Positions 23 through 40,914 of a stretch of DNA of 47,721 bases are shown here, piece by piece. Source of the stretch: an uncultured Gammaproteobacteria bacterium (lineage in GTDB: Bacteria > Patescibacteriota > Patescibacteriia > UBA1558 > S5-K13); assembly GCA_964634645.1 (NCBI GenBank), contig CAZWKI010000002.1, positions 266 through 47,986 of the forward strand, in the 5' to 3' direction. The position numbers were made by a program, and so were the translations under genes. The notes beneath the pieces were generated by a model. The model worked only from the letters and a program-made list of their open reading frames with translations. It was not told where the DNA came from and made no database searches. Position 1 is the first letter of the stretch, and each line of letters starts with the position of its first letter.

Positions 23-226
23 TAAGGAGTAAAAAATTGATTCTCACGAATCAATTCATCGATCATCTGATTACATATCGGGTGAAGTTTCTACCACTAT
101 CTAGTTGTTAAACAAAAACAGTCTTTGTGACTCCATTGATTTTACAATAATTATGATGTATTATATTTATTGTTTAATGGGGTCGTTTTTTTTAAATATT
201 AGTTTCTAAATTTGTCTTTCAAAATT

Positions 227-286: not shown

Positions 287-541
287 GGGCGTGTAGCTCA
301 GTTGGTTAGAGCGCAACACTGACCCGCCTCCCGAAGTACAAACACAAATCAATTAAATTGAAAACTTTATTATCTATTGTTGGAGGGCGCATAGCTCAGT
401 TGGTTAGAGCGCAACACTGATAATGTTGAGGTCCCAAGTTCAACTCTTGGTGCGCCCACCAACAGTTGATAATACTGTTGTCCTTCGTACGGAGGGCAGG
501 TAATGTTGAGGTCCCAAGTTCGATCCTTGGCACGCCCACCA
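287..541 (+). tRNA. tRNA-Ile(GAU) interrupted between anticodon positions 35/36 by a 178-nt insert (323-500)
   Basis: Halves 287-322 and 501-541 join into a perfect 77-nt cloverleaf with encoded CCA. The ends of the insert are complementary to each other. Confidence 0.6.
385..461 (+). tRNA. tRNA-Ile(GAU), complete, lying inside the insert of the outer tRNA-Ile
   Basis: Hand-folded cloverleaf: GGGCGCA/TGCGCCC acceptor, anticodon loop CTGATAA, TTCAACT T-loop, CCA end. Confidence 0.9.
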
Positions 542-967: not shown

Positions 968-1032
968 GGTGGGACGATAAGTTTATCCCGCCGAAGCTTT
1001 AGTGAAGGCGGGAAGTCCCACCACCCCGACCA
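968..1032 (+). pseudogene. tRNA-Pro 3' fragment (T-arm, acceptor 3' strand and CCA) with a 28-nt GC hairpin (986-1013) inserted in the T-loop
   Basis: 1014-1032 AGTCCCACCACCCCGACCA is identical to the 3' end of tRNA-Pro(UGG). GGTGGGA at 968-974 pairs with TCCCACC. Confidence 0.7.
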
Positions 1033-1087
1033 TTCGACTCATCCCACTTTGTAGGATTCGCTCATGGTCTTCGACCAAAATTGAAAT

Positions 1088-5438: not shown

Positions 5439-6392
5439 TCATTTCTTCTTTGTAAATAGTAGGCTCAGTATAGAAACGATTACAACAACAGACAACAGGC
5501 CTATTCCTATAATTTTGTTTTTGTTTTTCTTATAAATTTCTTCAAAAATTCCGTTTCTGCTTTGTTTTTCGTTTTGTAAATCTTCTACCGATACTTCTTC
5601 TGTGACTATATTCTCAGCTTCTTTTGTTATTTCGCTATTCTTATTCACTTCTTCGCTTTTGCTTTTATCCACGACAAGCATATTTTCCTCAATTTTATTA
5701 ACACTTACACTAACATCATCTATTCCACTTTCTGAAACAACAACGCTTTTGTCATTGTCTTGCATACTAATTTTAATACCGCTGACTTTCTCTTCTTTTA
5801 TAGAACTTATGTCACTATTTTCTTCCGTTAAATTGCTTTCTGTGCTTGTTGTGGTGGCTTCTTTTTTTGTAGAGATTTCTTGGTTTATAGACTCACTTGA
5901 CCTAATTATGTTTTGCTCTTTTGTTTTTATTATAAATGTATTTTCTACAGAGACAAAGCTTCTTCCCCATTTATTCATGGTCCAAGATATGACAGACCAT
6001 TTATGAGAACCAATTTCAATGTTTTTATTAACTTTAAAATAAAAATTTGCTGTTCCGCTTGCATCTTCATTTACCACTGCTTCCCCCTCATAAACTCCAT
6101 CCACATAAATACTAATTCTAGTTTTATTTGGAGTAAGTCCAGTAAGATAAATATCTTCGCTTGAAAAATATTCATCATTTTCTGGTTTTCTTAGAGTTGG
6201 AATTGTAACCATACAGTGTTTGACGCTACATTCCTTTTTGTACTCTAAATTGTAATCAATTTCCTCCTCTTGTCCATACGCATTATAGGCAGAACAAAAT
6301 AAAAACAAAATCCCCAAAAAAAGCCCGAACAAAATTTTTCTTTGTTTCATAAGCTTTTTTATCCAGCTTAGCTGGATGCATTTAATTTTCAA
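5439..6392 (-). CDS. hypothetical secreted protein with a C-terminal membrane anchor
   Basis: Signal peptide (start may be the internal MKQRKILFG), Ser/Glu-rich linker, C-terminal TM segment. Confidence 0.6.
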   Translation of the reverse strand: MKIKCIQLSWIKKLMKQRKILFGLFLGILFLFCSAYNAYGQEEEIDYNLEYKKECSVKHCMVTIPTLRKPENDEYFSSEDIYLTGLTPNKTRISIYVDGVYEGEAVVNEDASGTANFYFKVNKNIEIGSHKWSVISWTMNKWGRSFVSVENTFIIKTKEQNIIRSSESINQEISTKKEATTTSTESNLTEENSDISSIKEEKVSGIKISMQDNDKSVVVSESGIDDVSVSVNKIEENMLVVDKSKSEEVNKNSEITKEAENIVTEEVSVEDLQNEKQSRNGIFEEIYKKNKNKIIGIGLLSVVVIVSILSLLFTKKK

Positions 6393-6478: not shown

Positions 6479-6832
6479 CTAATATTCTAGTATTTTTATG
6501 CTTGCTTTTTTGCTTTTTAAATCAAGAAACACAAATACAAACAAAAGTTCGAAGTCGTTATCAACATCTCTATCCATTAAGTAATACAAAATTGATTTTT
6601 CAAGACGTTGTAATTTATAATATGAAATTGAGTCTTCCAAATCACCGTATTGAAAATTCGTTCTTGTTTTTACTTCTATAAAATATAATATTTTATCTTT
6701 TTCTGCCAAAACATCTATTTCGCCATAGCGAAAATAAATATTTCTATTCAAAATTTTATAACAGTGCTTTTCTAAATATCTTATAGCAATATCCTCCCCA
6801 AGTTTTCCTGTCTTTTGATTATATTTTTTCAT
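6479..6832 (-). CDS. yraN: YraN-family (UPF0102) endonuclease
   Basis: GKLGEDIAIRYLEK...GEIDVLAEKD..LYFIEVKTR motifs. Confidence 0.85.
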   Translation of the reverse strand: MKKYNQKTGKLGEDIAIRYLEKHCYKILNRNIYFRYGEIDVLAEKDKILYFIEVKTRTNFQYGDLEDSISYYKLQRLEKSILYYLMDRDVDNDFELLFVFVFLDLKSKKASIKILEY

Positions 6833-6876
6833 ATTGCTTATTATAAAATCTTGTTTTTTCTGTCACTCTAAACTTG

Positions 6877-6907
6877 CCTGCCCGCCGAAGCCTTGGCGAA
6901 GGCGGGA
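6877..6907. repeat. GC-rich hairpin element CCTGCCCGCCGAAGCCTTGGCGAAGGCGGGA
   Basis: Member of the recurrent TCCCGCC...GGCGGGA family. Intergenic. Confidence 0.7.
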
Positions 6908-6981
6908 AAATAAAAAGTCGCTCATTGCGACCCTTATCTTAAAACCCTAAAATCTAAAACCTAGACCCTAAACCCTAAACT

Positions 6982-7386: not shown

Positions 7387-7947
7387 TTATTTTTTCTTAA
7401 ATATTAATCCAAAATGATATTGACCGGCTTGAAACTCTTTTAAAAGACTTAGATTCAATGCGTCAGAAAGTCCCTTGATATAATTTGGGTCAACACGCTT
7501 GCTCCCTTGTGGTCCAAGTGGTGTTCCAATTCCCATCCAATCAATTATCAAAATTTTTCCTTCTTTTTTTATAAGTCTTGTAGCTTCCTTTAGTATATTT
7601 GGAATATTTGCTGACTGATAAAGCACATTTATAAGCATTACTAAATCAATTGAATTCTCTGGAATTTTTGTTGCTCCATATATCTCTAAATCACTCCAAA
7701 TTGTTTTAACATTATCAAATCCATTTGATTTGGCGTGACTCTCAACAGATGACAAAACTTCTTTTAGGACATCAACAGCATAAACAAGGCCTTTGTCTCC
7801 TACTATTCTTGCAGCCTGAAAAGAAAAATATGCCTTGGGTCCACATCCTAGTCCTGCTACGGTCTGACCATAACTCAATTCGGCAATTTTCTCCAAAATA
7901 TCTTTTGGATTTAATAATTGATTTCCACCCGCTTGTTTATCGTACAT
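7387..7947 (-). CDS. class I SAM-dependent methyltransferase
   Basis: Motif I VAGLGCGPK and a D-V acidic loop. Confidence 0.8.
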   Translation of the reverse strand: MYDKQAGGNQLLNPKDILEKIAELSYGQTVAGLGCGPKAYFSFQAARIVGDKGLVYAVDVLKEVLSSVESHAKSNGFDNVKTIWSDLEIYGATKIPENSIDLVMLINVLYQSANIPNILKEATRLIKKEGKILIIDWMGIGTPLGPQGSKRVDPNYIKGLSDALNLSLLKEFQAGQYHFGLIFKKK

Positions 7948-12858: not shown

Positions 12859-12881
12859 ATTATTTTATTTATTATTTATCT

Positions 12882-12898
12882 ACCTACCGGTAGGCAGG
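12882..12898. repeat. 17-nt palindromic mini-element ACCTACCGGTAGGCAGG
   Basis: Flanked by TTATCT and TTATTT. Overlaps the yidD stop region. Confidence 0.6.
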
Positions 12899-29952: not shown

Positions 29953-30537
29953 TTATTTCTTTGCTGTTTTCTTTTTTGATTTCTTTGCTTCGACAACTTT
30001 TTTCTTTGCGCTTGGTTTGGCAACAACTTTCTTTTCTGTGGTTGCGTTCTTAGCGGATGTCGGTGTTGAAAAATTTTTCAAAATTTTATCTAATTTTTCA
30101 TTTATCACTTGAAACTGTTCTTGAAATTGGGAATTATTATTAGAACTATTACCTCTGTCTTTGCTTCCACCTTGTTTATCAAAACATACTGAGCAAAGAA
30201 CTGGTTTGTCTCCGCTTGGTCTAAATGGTACTTCGCAGGCATTTCCACACTCTGCGCAAGTTGCCTTAAAATATTCTCTTTCACGAGAGCCAGATCTTGA
30301 AAAATTTCTATTGCCCGACCTATTTTCAGAACTATTTGAGTCGGATCTATTTTTTTCTCTGAAACAATCATCACAAAATATTGGTTTGTCGCTACTTGGC
30401 TTAAAAGGTACTTCACAATTTTTTCCACACTTATCACAAACTGCTCTGTGCATTTCTGATCTTTCTCGATTTTCATCTCTTCTATTAAAACTACCCCTTC
30501 TGTCTCTAGATCCGTTGTTTCTATTGAAATTTCTCAT
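29953..30537 (-). CDS. duplicated CxxC-N17-CxxC zinc-ribbon protein with RG/S-rich linkers and a Lys-rich tail
   Basis: Two copies of C(D/A)(K/E)CG..CEVPF(K/R)PS.DKP..C..CF. Confidence 0.75.
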   Translation of the reverse strand: MRNFNRNNGSRDRRGSFNRRDENRERSEMHRAVCDKCGKNCEVPFKPSSDKPIFCDDCFREKNRSDSNSSENRSGNRNFSRSGSREREYFKATCAECGNACEVPFRPSGDKPVLCSVCFDKQGGSKDRGNSSNNNSQFQEQFQVINEKLDKILKNFSTPTSAKNATTEKKVVAKPSAKKKVVEAKKSKKKTAKK

Positions 30538-30686
30538 AATTATTTATGTTTAGTTAATATACTTAAAGTCTAGCTGTTTAACTTATAAAAAGCAAGGTTC
30601 GGTCAAAATTTATATTTTTAAAATAAAAACATCTCCGAAAGAGACATGGTTATTGTAACTAACAAAAAATTTCACCTCAACAAATA

Positions 30687-30721
30687 TGGTATCCCGGCTA
30701 GGAATCGAACCTAGATCCACA
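30687..30721 (-). pseudogene. tRNA-Arg(UCU) 3' fragment (positions 41-76)
   Basis: 35 nt identical to 30788-30822. Confidence 0.8.
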
Positions 30722-30787
30722 ATATATAATTTTAAAAGATTAATAAATTTTATAAATCCAAATGTTTCTTTATTTTTCTCTTACTTA

Positions 30788-30862
30788 TGGTATCCCGGCT
30801 AGGAATCGAACCTAGATCCACAGCTTAGAAGGCTGTTGTTCTATCCGTTGAACTACCAGGAC
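30788..30862 (-). tRNA. tRNA-Arg(UCU)
   Basis: Reverse complement folds as GTCCTGG...loop CTTCTAA...TTCGATT...CCGGGAT-A-CCA. Confidence 0.9.
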
Positions 30863-31042
30863 AACATAAATAAGAGAAAAATTATCAAAGCTTATCCCGC
30901 AAATGTCTACGAGCATTAGCGAGTAGCAACATTTGCGAGGACCCCGCGAAAGTTGAATATAATATTAGTTTTCTTGCGGGACCCCAAAAATAATATTCGC
31001 TTCATTCCGCAGAGCGAAATTTCGCTCATTTATTTTGTGGGG

Positions 31043-31077
31043 GAAGGCTGTTGTTCTATCCGTTGAACTACCAGGAC
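31043..31077 (-). pseudogene. tRNA-Arg(UCU) 5' fragment (positions 1-35)
   Basis: 35 nt identical to the 5' part of the complete copy. Breaks after anticodon position 35. Confidence 0.8.
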
Positions 31078-31215
31078 ATAAACATCTTTAAAAACTTTTA
31101 TAAATATAAACAAAAATCTACAAAAAGTCAATTATTTCGAGTATAATTAAACTTGATTAAATCATTTGATGATGTTAAAATTCAAATACAAAAATTTAAA
31201 AATAACCATAAAAAT

Positions 31216-31587
31216 ATGCTAAAAAAGGTGCTATTATTAGTAATTATACTTTTTTCGCTTACTGCCTGCTCATTGAAACAAGACATTCAAAACAACACAG
31301 AAGCATTGAAAGAAGACCCTAGTGCAATGATTCTTTATTATAGTGAGACTTGTCCTCATTGCAAAATAGTTGATAAATATATTGAAGAAAATAATATTGA
31401 CTCTAGATTAAAAATTACAAAAAAAGAAGTTTCAGAAAGCATAGAAAATTCTTCAGAACTTGCTGAGAAAACTTATTCTTGTGGTTTGGATACAAAAAAT
31501 CTTGGCATTCCATTTCTATATTACAAATCAAAGTGTTATATGGGGGATCAAGATATAATAAAATTACTTGAAAATGAAATAAAATGA
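31216..31587 (+). CDS. thioredoxin-fold lipoprotein (CPHC active site)
   Basis: Lipobox LTAC after the MLKKVLLLVIILFS signal peptide. CPHC motif. Confidence 0.7.
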   Translation: MLKKVLLLVIILFSLTACSLKQDIQNNTEALKEDPSAMILYYSETCPHCKIVDKYIEENNIDSRLKITKKEVSESIENSSELAEKTYSCGLDTKNLGIPFLYYKSKCYMGDQDIIKLLENEIK

Positions 31588-33195: not shown

Positions 33196-33272
33196 TGGTG
33201 GGTCCTATAGGATTCGAACCTATGGCCTTCTCGGTGTAAACGAGACGCTCTAACCAACTGAGCCAAGGACCC
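33196..33272 (-). tRNA. tRNA-Val(UAC)
   Basis: Reverse complement folds as GGGTCCT..., loop TTTACAC, TTCGAAT, CCA. Confidence 0.9.
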
Positions 33273-33310
33273 AAAAGATTTTTAATTTACAATTTACTAT
33301 TTTCAAATAA

Positions 33311-33378
33311 TGGGTCCAACTGTCGTAGTTAAACGGAGATCCCGCATAAGTGAAACGCTTGCGGGAAGCCAAGGACCC
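33311..33378 (-). pseudogene. tRNA-Val 5' fragment with a GC hairpin (33340-33366) inserted after position 12
   Basis: 33367-33378 equals tRNA positions 1-12, and the same upstream spacer is present. CAGTTGG follows after the insert. Confidence 0.7.
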
Positions 33379-33387
33379 AAAATATTT

Positions 33388-33648
33388 TTAATTTATTATT
33401 TTCAATTTACAATTTATCAAATTTTCTTTTTCAATTCTTGATAATTTTTTAATTTGCCTCTCCCTTTTCATTGCATCTATTTTATTTTCAAATTTTTCAT
33501 AATATACAATCTTAACGGGCTTTCTATATTTTGTATATTTTGCACCGCCTCCGGTATTGTGTTTATTTTCTCTTGATTTCAAATCTTTACAATATCCAGT
33601 ATATAATGTTTTGTCACTACAAAGGGCTATATATACATAAAATATCAT
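33388..33648 (-). CDS. GIY-YIG nuclease-domain protein (single domain, 86 aa)
   Basis: FYVYIALCSDKTLYTGYCKDLKSRENKHN ... RERQIKK. Confidence 0.85.
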   Translation of the reverse strand: MIFYVYIALCSDKTLYTGYCKDLKSRENKHNTGGGAKYTKYRKPVKIVYYEKFENKIDAMKRERQIKKLSRIEKENLINCKLKIIN

Positions 33649-33683
33649 AAATAATTTTATTTTATAATATCTAAATAGAATAA

Positions 33684-33705
33684 ATGGTGGACTTGGTGGG
33701 AAACC
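33684..33705 (-). pseudogene. tRNA-Ala(UGC) 3' fragment
   Basis: ATGGTGGACTTGGTGGGA is identical to the 3' end of the complete gene at 34519. It is followed by AACC after a 4-nt gap. Confidence 0.7.
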
Positions 33706-33823
33706 ATTGGAGATATATTATCATGGAATTAAAGCTTTGGCAAGAATTAAAATTAATAAATTGAATAATAAAAAACGATGATATTTCTAAAAACATCATC
33801 GCCTAATTTTGCCATTCCTTGTT

Positions 33824-34027
33824 TTACCATTTCATACGACTCATAAGATCGGCTATAATATCGGCTGGTGTTATACGTTGAAGTCCTTTTTCAGTCATAA
33901 CATAAACTTCTTTGTTTAGACAGCTAATATCATATTTTGTTTCTTTCGGTTGCCCCCGTGTTGAGTCGTCTATTGGTTTTTGCTCTGAATCACCTTGTAA
34001 TTTTTCATGATTACTTTCTGTAACCAT
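33824..34027 (-). CDS. hypothetical 67-aa protein
   Basis: GGAGGAG Shine-Dalgarno sequence. Terminator lies downstream at about 33775-33810. Confidence 0.55.
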   Translation of the reverse strand: MVTESNHEKLQGDSEQKPIDDSTRGQPKETKYDISCLNKEVYVMTEKGLQRITPADIIADLMSRMKW

Positions 34028-34109
34028 ATCTCCTCCTAAAACTTTCTAGACTTAATTATTATTTATCCTATCACTTATCTTAATTTTGTAAATAGACAAA
34101 CAAAAAACA

Positions 34110-34352
34110 CTAAATTAATCTTTTTTTCATAAACGCTATTCCTGAGCCACTCTTCAAATATTTTTCAAATCCTACGGCTTTTAATTTATCTTCAAACACA
34201 GCATAAAAAATTATTTTTAGTGGTTTTATATTGCGCGTTGAACCTACCTTACCAGAATTATGATAGAATATTCTTTTTTTCAAATTCGTAGTAAAACCCT
34301 TATAAATTCTATTGTTATATTTTTTACTTCTTAAAATATAGACGTAATACAT
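34110..34352 (-). CDS. GIY-YIG nuclease-domain protein (single domain, about 80 aa)
   Basis: MYYVYILRSKKYNNRIYKGFTTNLKKRIFYHN. Confidence 0.85.
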   Translation of the reverse strand: MYYVYILRSKKYNNRIYKGFTTNLKKRIFYHNSGKVGSTRNIKPLKIIFYAVFEDKLKAVGFEKYLKSGSGIAFMKKRLI

Positions 34353-34518
34353 AAAAATAAAAATCACTTATAAAATAAGCGACCCTTTGATTAATTTTAA
34401 ACTCCTGTGATTCACTACTTGGGTACACCATCCGAAACTCAAAATTAATATGTATATATAAAATCAGATTGATGTCCTTCGCTAAAGCTGCGGACATCAT
34501 CTTCACTAAAGTGAAGGA

Positions 34519-34595
34519 TGGTGGACTTGGTGGGATTCGAACCCACGACCCTCTGCTTGCAAAGCAGATGCTCTAACCAACTGAGCCACAAGCCC
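34519..34595 (-). tRNA. tRNA-Ala(UGC)
   Basis: G3:U70 pair, loop TTTGCAA, TTCGAAT, CCA. Confidence 0.9.
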
Positions 34596-34669
34596 ATAGT
34601 TTAATTTAAAATTAAATATTTCAAATTACAAAATAAATTTTAATATTCTTGACTCTGACGAAGTTAGTT

Positions 34670-34720
34670 TAACCAACTGCCTGTCCGCCATAGCGTAGCG
34701 AAGGCGGAAGCCACAAGCCC
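34670..34720 (-). pseudogene. tRNA-Ala 5' fragment (positions 1-22) with a 29-nt hairpin insert (34680-34708) after position 12
   Basis: AGCCACAAGCCC and TAACCAACTG match the real gene on either side of CCTGTCCGCCATAGCGTAGCGAAGGCGGA. Confidence 0.75.
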
Positions 34721-34765
34721 TTAATATTTTTATATTAATTTACTAATTTTAAATATTACTAAATT

Positions 34766-34850
34766 TGGTGCCCGGAAGAGGACTCGAACCTCCAAGCCAC
34801 AAAGGCACATGCACCTCAAGCATGCGCGTATACCATTCCGCCATCCGGGC
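34766..34850 (-). tRNA. tRNA-Leu(GAG)
   Basis: 85 nt, long variable arm, loop TTGAGGT. Confidence 0.9.
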
Positions 34851-37137: not shown

Positions 37138-37158
37138 ACCTACCTGCCGGCAGGCAGG
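37138..37158. repeat. 21-nt palindromic mini-element ACCTACCTGCCGGCAGGCAGG flanked by AAATCT/AAATCT
   Basis: Perfect 6-nt direct repeats at 37132-37137 and 37159-37164. Confidence 0.7.
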
Positions 37159-40705: not shown

Positions 40706-40740
40706 ATATTGGTTTCAAATTTAAAAGGTCAAATGTAAAG

Positions 40741-40809
40741 TGTTCTATAAACAAACTTCTCGTCCCGCCGAAATTTTAATGAAGGCGGGATCCGTTGAAC
40801 TACGAGGGC
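40741..40809 (-). pseudogene. tRNA-Arg(CCU) 5' fragment (positions 1-27) with a 42-nt insert in the D-loop containing hairpin 40763-40790
   Basis: TCCGTTGAACTACGAGGGC and TGTTCTAT match the real gene on either side of the insert. Confidence 0.75.
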
Positions 40810-40914
40810 AATGTTAATTTCAAGTATTGAATTTTGAAATTTGAATTAATTGTACAATAAACTAATTATAAATTTAAATTCATCATTCGAAATTCATATT
40901 TCAAAATTGTTTAA

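Follow-up and report, generated by a model that had tools for sequence, protein, structure and literature searches.

We studied the tRNA-Arg(UCU) locus in a 47,721-nt stretch of DNA (hereafter the window) from contig CAZWKI010000002.1 of assembly GCA_964634645.1, which is placed in Patescibacteriota by GTDB and has a GC content of about 30% (29.7%). On the minus strand, an intact tRNA-Arg(UCU) gene comes after an incomplete duplicate of its own sequence, in which a cluster of hairpins interrupts the anticodon loop, and is itself followed by a fragment of its 3' end. The locus is probably a scar of duplication and insertion at the level of DNA, formed at a tRNA hotspot and since inherited and decaying, and not an RNA device. 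Taken alone it is a pseudogene scar and reveals no new RNA or intron. It takes part in a regular pattern that was not found described in the literature searched: tRNA hotspots gather fragments of their own genes, GC-rich hairpins lodged in the loops, and small genes for GIY-YIG nucleases. The hotspots are single-copy tRNA genes of reduced, AT-rich genomes, and one intact gene is always left.

All features of the Arg(UCU) locus are on the minus strand. The intact gene, which is presumably functional, is 75 nt long (30788-30862); its presence had been claimed in an earlier note on this DNA and was confirmed by ARAGORN and Rfam (RF00005, 67.1 bits). The outer 5' pseudo-copy (31043-31077), which that note had read as tRNA positions 1-35 ending past C35, the second anticodon base, proved to be exactly this, with 100% identity to 30828-30862 (repeat D16; blastn). 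It had further been proposed that nucleotides 36-40 are missing and that the outer fragments bracket a 321-nt insert, with the inner tRNA inside it. Both proposals had to be abandoned. Past the hairpins the tRNA sequence resumes at position 36 with TAAGCTtTG (30886-30894; positions 36-44), which matches in 8 of 9 bases and is reached by 2% of arm shuffles; an exact TAAGCTG was found in three relatives. The true insert is only the cluster of three adjacent hairpins, 148 nt in length (31042-30895), located exactly between C35 and T36. The outer 5' copy spans positions 1 to about 44, overlaps the 3' fragment (41-75) by about 4 nt, and gives way, at about position 42-44, to an AT-rich spacer of 23 nt (30863-30885) and then to the intact gene. 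No open reading frame (ORF) was found in the insert or the locus, and the best match in a six-frame hmmsearch for GIY-YIG domains had E = 0.57.

The outer 3' fragment (30687-30721) is, as had been stated, 100% identical to the tRNA (30788-30822; repeat D15, blastn); it covers positions 41-75 and not 41-76, the tRNA being 75 nt long. The repeat continues to 30685, and D15 is thus a 37-nt direct repeat made up of positions 41-75 plus TA. Between the tRNA and the 3' fragment lies an AT-rich stretch of 66 nt (30722-30787; 12% GC), flanked by D15; counted between the repeats, the insert is 64 nt. No ORF, GIY-YIG remnant or hairpin was detected in the 66-nt stretch. Both this stretch and the outer 3' fragment are specific to the window, and neither was found downstream of the tRNA in the related loci L167 or L178. 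A simple tandem duplication of the 3' side in the window was rejected, since the sequence past the 3' fragment does not repeat the 66-nt stretch.

A promoter-like site, TTGACT-17-TATATT (31103-31131; 10 of 12 matches in a consensus scan), is located upstream of the outer 5' fragment and may serve as its promoter. Alignment showed a conserved TTGACT...TATAT(A/T) block in the relatives as well: in L167, L181 and L178 it precedes the outermost copy, and in L165 the plain gene. Because the block precedes the outermost copy in all five genomes, the outer fragment appears to be the ancestral gene start, and the intact copy would be read from a long precursor. The inner tRNA is flanked by a leader-trailer inverted repeat of 16 nt, in which TTTTTCTCTTATTTAT of the spacer pairs with ATAAGTAAGAGAAAAA of the trailer (30785-30770); an 18-bp helix was seen in the fold of the whole locus. 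Leader and trailer complementarity was also observed elsewhere in the window, and at 366-383/459-476, 620-640/725-750 and 30865-30880/30770-30785 it extends the acceptor stem by 11-18 bp. Complementary leaders and trailers may be a general processing-stem feature of the tRNA precursors of this organism.

The arm was resolved by folding into hairpins H1 (61 nt, 30982-31042), H2 (40 nt, 30942-30981) and H3 (47 nt, 30895-30941). The strands of H1, CCCCA-C-AAAATAA and TTATTTT-TGGGG, enclose a small GC hairpin (GAGCGAAATTTCGCTC / ATTTCGC-TCT-GCGGAAT). H2 pairs TCCCGC with GCGGGG around an AT-rich loop, and H3 pairs TCC-T-CGCAAATGT with ACATTTGCG-GGA. The 180 nt between the outer fragment and the intact gene fold as RNA at -54.7 kcal/mol (z = -5.07 against shuffles), and the 148-nt insert folds as DNA with z = -5.47. 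The earlier description of the arm as full of helices therefore held, the helices named there being present. The GC content, described as much higher than in the genome, is indeed higher, but only moderately (43% for the 148 nt and 39% for the 180 nt versus 29.7%), with GC concentrated in the stems. The C-run with which the insert was said to begin is present as CCCCA, but it is merely the 5' strand of H1, pairing with TGGGG.

Two of the three hairpins belong to repeat families. The pattern CCCGC-N(3-33)-GCGGG has six matches in the window against 0.06 expected (about 100-fold), four of which abut breakpoints of tRNA fragments; H2 and H3 share its stem words, and the stem words of H3 are the same as those of a hairpin in a tRNA-Val pseudo-copy (33341-33365). 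The pattern CCGCC...GGCGG has four matches in the window against 0.03 expected, and related modules occur at many loci. H1 is the exception to the multi-copy hairpin family and was found at Arg(UCU) loci only. Covariation in the arm is weak or absent. H2 has an invariant stem and a hypervariable loop among its four homologs, H3 has six pair-breaking cells and no compensatory change among four homologs with 93% identity, and H1 shows one true compensatory change (C-G to T-A, in L178 copy A) and one compensated indel, as much as is reached by 46 of 500 shuffles.

Only tRNA was found in the whole window at Rfam gathering thresholds. When 30500-31300 was scanned with cmscan under permissive filters, matches up to E = 10 were limited to tRNA and chance-level ones; HEARO/omega RNAs, retrons, bridge RNAs and introns of groups I and II were all absent. 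No ORF for IscB/TnpB, reverse transcriptase or IS110 recombinase was present among the window proteins scanned. An RNA-level mechanism, which the earlier note had considered alongside a DNA-level one, thus found no support in Rfam, in a bulge-helix-bulge motif or in compensatory change in H3. The arm behaves as repeat DNA with some maintenance of hairpins, and not as a conserved ribozyme, guide RNA or intron. Targeting of the IS200/IS605 type was also considered and rejected; the hairpin insertions share no target word on their 5' side, and TnpA is lacking.

Orthologous Arg(UCU) loci were reached in four relatives via conserved neighbouring proteins, whose identity to the window is 97% for L167, 94% for L178, 90% for L181 and 85% for L165, the most distant. 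The intact tRNA is 100% identical in L165, L167 and L178, and over the 55 nt reached by the L181 contig. L165 has a plain gene with no fragments and no arm. L167 and L181 have a 5' pseudo-copy with the H1-H2-H3 arm at 35|36, the exact TAAGCTG, a short spacer and the intact gene. In L178, two tandem pseudo-copy units were found (H1 and H2 in copy A, H1 and H3 in copy B), each with the exact TAAGCTG resumption, and then the intact gene. Homologs of the arm, which the earlier note had left to be sought, are thus present at the same 35|36 junction in L167, L181 and L178. Compared with that of the window, the arm is 78% identical in L167 and 83% in L181, and less so in the shorter L178 copies, which lack modules; H1 has homologs in all of these copies, H2 is absent from L178 copy B and H3 from L178 copy A. 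A 31-nt hairpin (TCCGCC...GACGGG) is lodged at 12|13 of the pseudo-copy in L167, L181 and L178, and is lacking in the window. The pseudo-copy is degenerate in L167 and has substitutions in L181 and L178 copy B. The downstream 3' fragment is present in none of the three relatives that have a pseudo-copy; the 5' and 3' flanks therefore appear to have arisen separately. The four Arg(UCU) loci share their junction by descent, and they therefore represent one old event and are not evidence of ongoing targeting.

A two-hairpin module, TCCGCCAGAGGCGGA-TCAGCCTTTGGCTGA, was observed 14 nt upstream of the plain tRNA-Arg(UCU) in L165 (3490-3520, minus strand) and at the same place upstream of pseudo-copy B in L178 (1845-1875, minus strand). 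Because the module sits there as in L165, copy B appears to be a former functional gene. Neither blastn nor nhmmer detected homologs of the whole arm in L19-centred relatives (1.16 Mb). Viral contigs had 0 exact-pattern matches to the arm, the tRNA half or the H1 core, and a metagenome scan for the broken 35|V junction also gave 0 matches. Exact-protein lookups of neighbours returned only contigs 100% identical to the window, which break at or near the repeats. The Trx-like homologs P0006, P0007, P0002 and P0008 were rejected, as they are not syntenic with the tRNA.

From these comparisons the following history can be proposed. A Komeilibacteria-like ancestor would have gained a partial upstream duplicate of tRNA-Arg(UCU), from position 1 to about 42-44, between the native promoter and the complete copy. 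Any tandem duplication or Campbell-type insertion that ends inside a tRNA gene leaves one gene intact and adds a fragment on one side, the 5' part upstream or the 3' part downstream. The upstream copy, now disabled, may have been colonised in its anticodon loop, exactly at 35|36, by the GC-rich palindromic hairpins H1, H2 and H3. By a second event, seen in the window only, an AT-rich insert of 64-66 nt may have come to separate the tRNA from a duplicated 3' segment (41-75). The unit would later have evolved as non-functional repeat DNA, with modules lost or gained, re-duplication of the unit in one relative and pair-breaking changes in the stems. Gene conversion from the functional gene may occasionally overwrite the pseudo-copy, and this would explain why the window fragment is perfect (35/35) and lacks the hairpin at 12|13. 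The working tRNA would derive from the inner copy, with RNase P and the usual 3' processing acting on a long precursor.

The occurrence of such fragments was surveyed in 253 tRNAs from 1.48 Mb of Patescibacteria DNA, counting fragments of at least 12 nt. The window opens with a 16S rRNA gene, of which it has the 3' end, and contains 11 tRNA genes. Its L19 protein shares 84% identity with the L19 of a Candidatus Komeilibacteria metagenome-assembled genome (MAG), and the best 80 L19 neighbourhoods belonged to MAGs of Patescibacteria or to MAGs whose only title was 'uncultured bacterium' or 'uncultured Gammaproteobacteria'. In the window, self-fragments were also found for tRNA-Ile, tRNA-Pro(UGG), tRNA-Arg(CCU), tRNA-Ala(UGC) and tRNA-Val(UAC). 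Across the survey, 18 fragments were 5'-anchored and upstream and 15 were 3'-anchored and downstream, with two on the wrong side and none on the opposite strand (p = 4e-8). This polarity needs no special mechanism, because any tandem duplication or Campbell-type insertion ending inside the gene yields it. What needs explanation is the frequency of the fragments, the loop bias and the hairpins. Breaks lie in or at tRNA loops in 24 of 33 cases (p = 1.4e-4), and in 23 of 37 a perfect GC-rich hairpin begins no more than 12 nt from the break, mostly at offset 0, versus 82 of 3000 control 60-mers (2.7%; p = 8e-26). In the L19-centred loci and the window, nearly all fragments are within 600 nt of the tRNA and no kb-sized islands were seen; the only fragment farther away lies at about 0.9 kb, with a GIY-YIG gene in between.

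The earlier note had pointed out that two different tRNAs, Ile and Arg(UCU), are hit at the same 35/36 position, and had taken this to suggest site-specific recognition of the anticodon loop. The coincidence is real, and the loop bias and the hairpins at breaks agree with recognition of loops, but a single 35/36 specificity does not exist. Other breaks were found at 7|8, 12|13, 16|17, 20-22, 33|34, 34|35, 37|38 and 56-61, and at 17|18, where one hairpin module recurs five times. Because of the insertions at site 35 in Ile and Arg, the loop bias and the hairpins at breaks, some loop-directed process is likely to lie behind the breaks.

The tRNA sequence often resumes past a hairpin, for example in the order 1-17, TCCGCC-N3-GGCGGA, CCAGCC..GGCTGG, 18-23. 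The two-hairpin module at 17|18 was found in tRNA-Val (L058), tRNA-Pro (L085, L072) and tRNA-Ala (L019, L076), with compensatory stem differences between its versions. A 31-nt element, TCCGCC...GAC(A/G)GG, recurs in pseudo-copies of Arg at 12|13, of Val and Ala at 7|8 and of Ala at 16|17. The hairpins appear to be independent insertions, because L082 has a 30-nt hairpin that L078, orthologous in other respects, lacks. In tRNA copies the insertions are seamless and have no target duplication, some intergenic copies have short flanking repeats, and no transposase was identified. A 5' fragment of tRNA-Arg(CCU) (positions 1-20) with a CCCGCC..GGCGGG hairpin lies upstream of the gene in the window (40706-40810, minus strand) and in L005 (4960-5065), and is absent in the syntenic L008 (5904-5966). 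In both loci that have it, the fragment carries the three lineage-specific substitutions of its own tRNA and the spacer is about 50% diverged, which is concerted evolution.

Further copies of this kind were observed on the minus strand of the window. At 34660-34720 a degenerate upstream tRNA-Ala pseudo-copy (1-12) has the hairpin TCCGCC..GGCGGA-CAGG at 12|13, and at 33320-33383 a degenerate upstream tRNA-Val pseudo-copy (1-12) has the hairpin TCCCGCA..TGCGGGA, also at 12|13; in the latter, 39 nt of the upstream leader were duplicated as well (repeat D12). A near-identical 20-nt palindrome, CCTGCCTGCCGGCAGGCAGG, is present in the window at 228-247, 12879-12898 and 37139-37158, in L071 at 5512-5531 and in L050 at 7614-7633. 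In L071 it lies in the D-loop (21|22) of a tRNA-Lys pseudo-copy adjoining a GIY-YIG ORF, and in L050 in the T-loop (56|57) of a tRNA-Ile pseudo-copy.

Some inserts hold a GIY-YIG ORF of 80-100 aa on the tRNA strand (window, L058, L085, L071, L040). In the window, the segment at 33685-34595 (minus strand) consists of tRNA-Ala(UGC), GC hairpins, a GIY-YIG ORF (34110-34367), a 67-aa ORF (33824-34027) and a 17-nt 3' fragment of positions 61-77 (33701-33685). A second GIY-YIG ORF (33388-33648) lies past the Ala 3' fragment; PF01541 was matched with E = 9e-17 at 33388-33648 and E = 4e-14 at 34110-34367. In L058 (7250-7912, plus strand) two 294-bp tandem units precede an intact tRNA-Val, each consisting of tRNA-Val 1-17, the two-hairpin module, GGCTA and a GIY-YIG ORF; the units are identical wherever compared, which suggests recent duplication. 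Ten of 14 independent GIY-YIG ORFs are within 500 nt of a tRNA, versus 19% of all ORFs (p = 3.5e-5). The proteins are of the single-domain UPF0213 type and match the structures 1zg2 and 1ywl.

A break-driven mechanism is most likely, judging by association and by analogy with SegB homing and segmental amplification. Breaks would occur at hairpin-prone tRNA loops and be made or exploited by UPF0213-type GIY-YIG nucleases, by GC-hairpin repeats, or by both; these elements occupy exactly such inserts elsewhere in the window and in relatives. Repair after a break would duplicate part of the gene and keep one copy intact. A bolder proposal is that the single-domain UPF0213 GIY-YIG nucleases of Patescibacteria and the GC hairpins form an undescribed selfish system directed at tRNA loops. 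It would break tRNA genes in the D, anticodon or T loop and spread through repair in which one intact tRNA is always regenerated, so that nested and tandem self-copies accumulate. The Arg(UCU) arm would be an old relic of it, without an ORF. We offer this proposal tentatively, and would rather expect it to be wrong than right.

Several observations weigh against the decaying scar and the drivers proposed for it. In an unbiased metagenome sample, nine of 80 relatives of the nuclease adjoin a tRNA, and none of these nine has fragments; the five closest metagenome relatives all adjoin a tRNA, also with no fragments. The association between tRNA and nuclease holds only for the Patescibacteria subgroup. 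UPF0213 nucleases have no known sequence specificity and are tied to duplication only by association. The Arg locus has no gene for a GIY-YIG nuclease, transposase, integrase or reverse transcriptase, and of these only GIY-YIG was found among the window proteins scanned. Instead of being dispersed, H1 occurs at this one locus. The arm is about 80% identical across a divergence at which the neighbouring AT-rich spacers are hardly alignable; together with the invariant stem of H2 this could reflect constraint on the hairpins, at the level of DNA or RNA, and not neutrality. The pseudo-copy and arm are necessarily transcribed as tRNA leader, and a leader function has to be allowed for. Either the duplication or the hairpins may have come first. 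As for phages, the tblastn matches listed were short proteins annotated as 'GIY-YIG nuclease family protein' or lay in records without annotation, with no T4-like phage among the listed organisms, and no annotated tRNA was found near the phage homolog in the one context examined.

The second case of a break at 35|36, tRNA-Ile(GAU), differs from Arg(UCU) in several respects. In the window (287-541, plus strand) the outer halves (287-322 and 501-541) join at 35|36 as a perfect tRNA. They enclose an inner gene (385-461), from which the outer one differs in the acceptor stem and T-arm in a compensatory manner (outer GGGCGTG/CACGCCC versus inner GGGCGCA/TGCGCCC). The insert ends pair with each other (CCCGCCTCCCGAAG / CTTCGTACGGAGGGCAGG), and the helix stacks on the anticodon stem; by inspection of the precursor fold, the junctions are directly opposite at the helix base and not in a 3-4-3 bulge-helix-bulge arrangement. 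In L085 a plain tRNA-Ile matches the window inner copy, and not the outer one, in its acceptor and T arm. A truncated tRNA-His copy (about 1-63) was observed in L178 (1405-1114, minus strand); it is identical to the intact L165/L167 gene and lies upstream of a different intact tRNA-His allele. This arrangement looks like allele replacement that left a 5' fragment.

The nested appearance of these loci could mean that a mobile element with its own complete replacement tRNA was inserted site-specifically at 35/36 of the resident tRNA-Arg, the outer halves being the old gene and all that lies between them the element. The perfect joined outer tRNA, compensatory differences and pairing insert ends of the Ile locus fit such an element, as does the tRNA-His arrangement of L178, and the Arg fragments of the window do bracket the inner gene. 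Arg(UCU) itself makes the idea improbable: the copy resumes at position 36 straight past the 148-nt cluster, leaving the inner tRNA outside the 35/36 insert; the flanks are of separate origin, as the relatives with a 5' pseudo-copy and no 3' fragment show; and with identical inner and outer sequences no foreign allele is visible. For Ile, it is the inner and not the outer copy that resembles the plain L085 gene. A replacement tRNA brought by an element thus fits Ile and the L178 tRNA-His better than Arg, and it may hold for Ile. The pseudo-copy and arm might otherwise form a functional structured 5' leader or small RNA, acting in precursor processing, stability or transcription, or as a decoy with the tRNA 5' half. 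They lie between the conserved promoter block and the tRNA and hence must be transcribed, are conserved in at least four genomes and have a fold z of about -5. The invariant H2 stem with its variable loop, the compensatory pair and compensated indel in H1, and the preserved identity of the window 5' fragment to the tRNA are also consistent with function. We nevertheless regard this as unlikely, although less so than a replacement element. L165 does without the arm though its tRNA is identical, H2 or H3 is dispensable in L178, and H3 changes only break pairs; the pseudo-copy is degenerate or substituted in relatives, Rfam gave no match, and like hairpins are found in many unrelated tRNA pseudo-copies and at intergenic sites.

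A different origin for the flanks would be attL/attR-type scars of integrase elements (phages, integrative and conjugative elements or cis-mobilisable elements), since almost wholly deleted. Direct repeats of a terminal tRNA segment around an insert are a classic signature of integration (PMC9897764), and the 37-nt repeat of the window (41-75 plus TA) fits. The 3' fragments begin in the anticodon arm or T-loop. These two places are reportedly among the known integrase sublocations in tRNA genes, a point attributed to Williams in 2002. No tyrosine or serine recombinase was found among the window proteins scanned, however, and the fragments nearly all lie close to the tRNA, with no kb-sized islands and only the 0.9-kb exception with its GIY-YIG gene. 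Fragments placed 5' and upstream are as common as those placed 3' and downstream (18 versus 15), which is unusual for integrases, and hairpins sit exactly at the breaks; we consider the integrase origin quite improbable. Far less probable still is that the arm is a true intron, of the small group I or archaeal bulge-helix-bulge type, or that the outer halves are a split tRNA joined as RNA. Bacterial group I tRNA introns lie in the anticodon loop, as does this insertion, and the Ile outer gene is complete, with its insert-end helix stacked on the anticodon stem. Neither the absence of a group I or II match at E up to 10 nor the geometry of the Ile junction helix agrees with an intron; the Arg outer copy ends at about 44, the relatives have no 3' exon and there is no covariation. 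Splicing is also unnecessary, because a complete tRNA follows the outer copy, and no splicing endonuclease (EndA) or RNA ligase was present among the ORFs scanned in the window. An assembly or binning artefact caused by repeats is hardly credible, even for a metagenome assembly in which short-read contigs break near the locus: the same architecture is present in four independent assemblies from different samples, and at 35-37 nt the repeats fall below the usual length of reads and of assembler k-mers. Independent Logan contigs, assembled from SRR8925769 and SRR8925802, are 100% identical to the window. The SRR8925769 k=31 assembly (locus L001) stops at 30714, exactly 30 nt into the downstream 37-nt repeat, which is where a unitig of a 31-mer de Bruijn graph is expected to break at a real repeat; the repeat is therefore present in independent read data.

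The inherited DNA scar can be compared with several known systems. SegB is a GIY-YIG endonuclease that recognises the T-psi-C motif of tRNA, cleaves within tRNA genes at this conserved loop motif and homes in the T4 tRNA cluster (PMC2330249), and it drives recombination-dependent tandem amplification of units of tRNA and segB (PMC13096335). Here too GIY-YIG genes lie among tRNA genes on the same strand; L058 has its tandem units of fragment, hairpin and ORF, and GIY-YIG ORFs occur between a tRNA and its own fragment. The nucleases studied here, however, are chromosomal, of a single domain and 80-100 aa long, the Arg(UCU) locus has no nuclease gene, and GC hairpins at breaks are not a feature of SegB. 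Membership of the SegB family is not established, because the proteins have no SegB-like DNA-binding domain and no similarity to SegB. Partial tRNA genes are commonly left by integrating elements (PMC9897764), and in both cases an intact tRNA is kept and its terminal segment is repeated beyond the inserted DNA. In contrast to att-site scars, the inserts here are 60-800 nt with no integrase, 5' upstream fragments are as frequent as 3' downstream ones, and the fragments are themselves interrupted by loop hairpins. In AT-rich mitochondrial genomes, palindromic GC clusters, such as GC42 of yeast, are multi-copy, vary in presence and absence among close relatives and merge into composites (PMC4478555). 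They resemble the short GC palindromes of this genome with about 30% GC, where H1-H3 form a composite whose modules come and go. The differences are the bacterial host, the strong tie to tRNA fragments and loop positions, the lack of a clear target-site duplication and the confinement of H1 to one locus. With group I and archaeal tRNA introns the locus shares a structured, more GC-rich interruption of the anticodon loop, and the Ile halves have pairing flanks; Arg differs in having no intron core, bulge-helix-bulge motif, 3' exon or covariation, and in being followed by a complete gene.

If the link to the nucleases is true, it would give a function to UPF0213 proteins, whose structures are solved and whose role is not known, and it would extend SegB-like homing and amplification of tRNA genes from phages to bacterial chromosomes. 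In practice, such fragments lead tRNA annotation astray, and short-read assemblies of genomes from candidate phyla break at them.

Other features of tRNA genes were observed in passing. A GC-rich structured element (…ATTCGACTC…hairpin…TTCGCTCATGGTCTTCGACC…; long-range pairing CATTCGACTC/GAGTCGAATG) lies directly past tRNA CCA ends and is conserved across distant Patescibacteria. It was found in the window (968-1077, plus strand), L004 (3418-3640), L005 (10599-10750), L084 (2358-2600 and 2764-2980) and L085 (1123-1240); in the window it comes after a 19-nt 3' fragment of tRNA-Pro (1014-1032). The order of tRNA-Val and tRNA-Ala past tRNA-Leu flips (Leu-Ala-Val versus Leu-Val-Ala) between the window (33196-34850) and L004, L005, L008-L010 and L013. 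These two tRNAs have an identical 19-nt D-arm in common, which could mediate recombination. At 6479-6910 of the window, a gene for a UPF0102 protein (YraN-like nuclease) adjoins a free-standing hairpin, CCCGCC-GAAGCNTTNGYGAA-GGCGGG (6881-6906).

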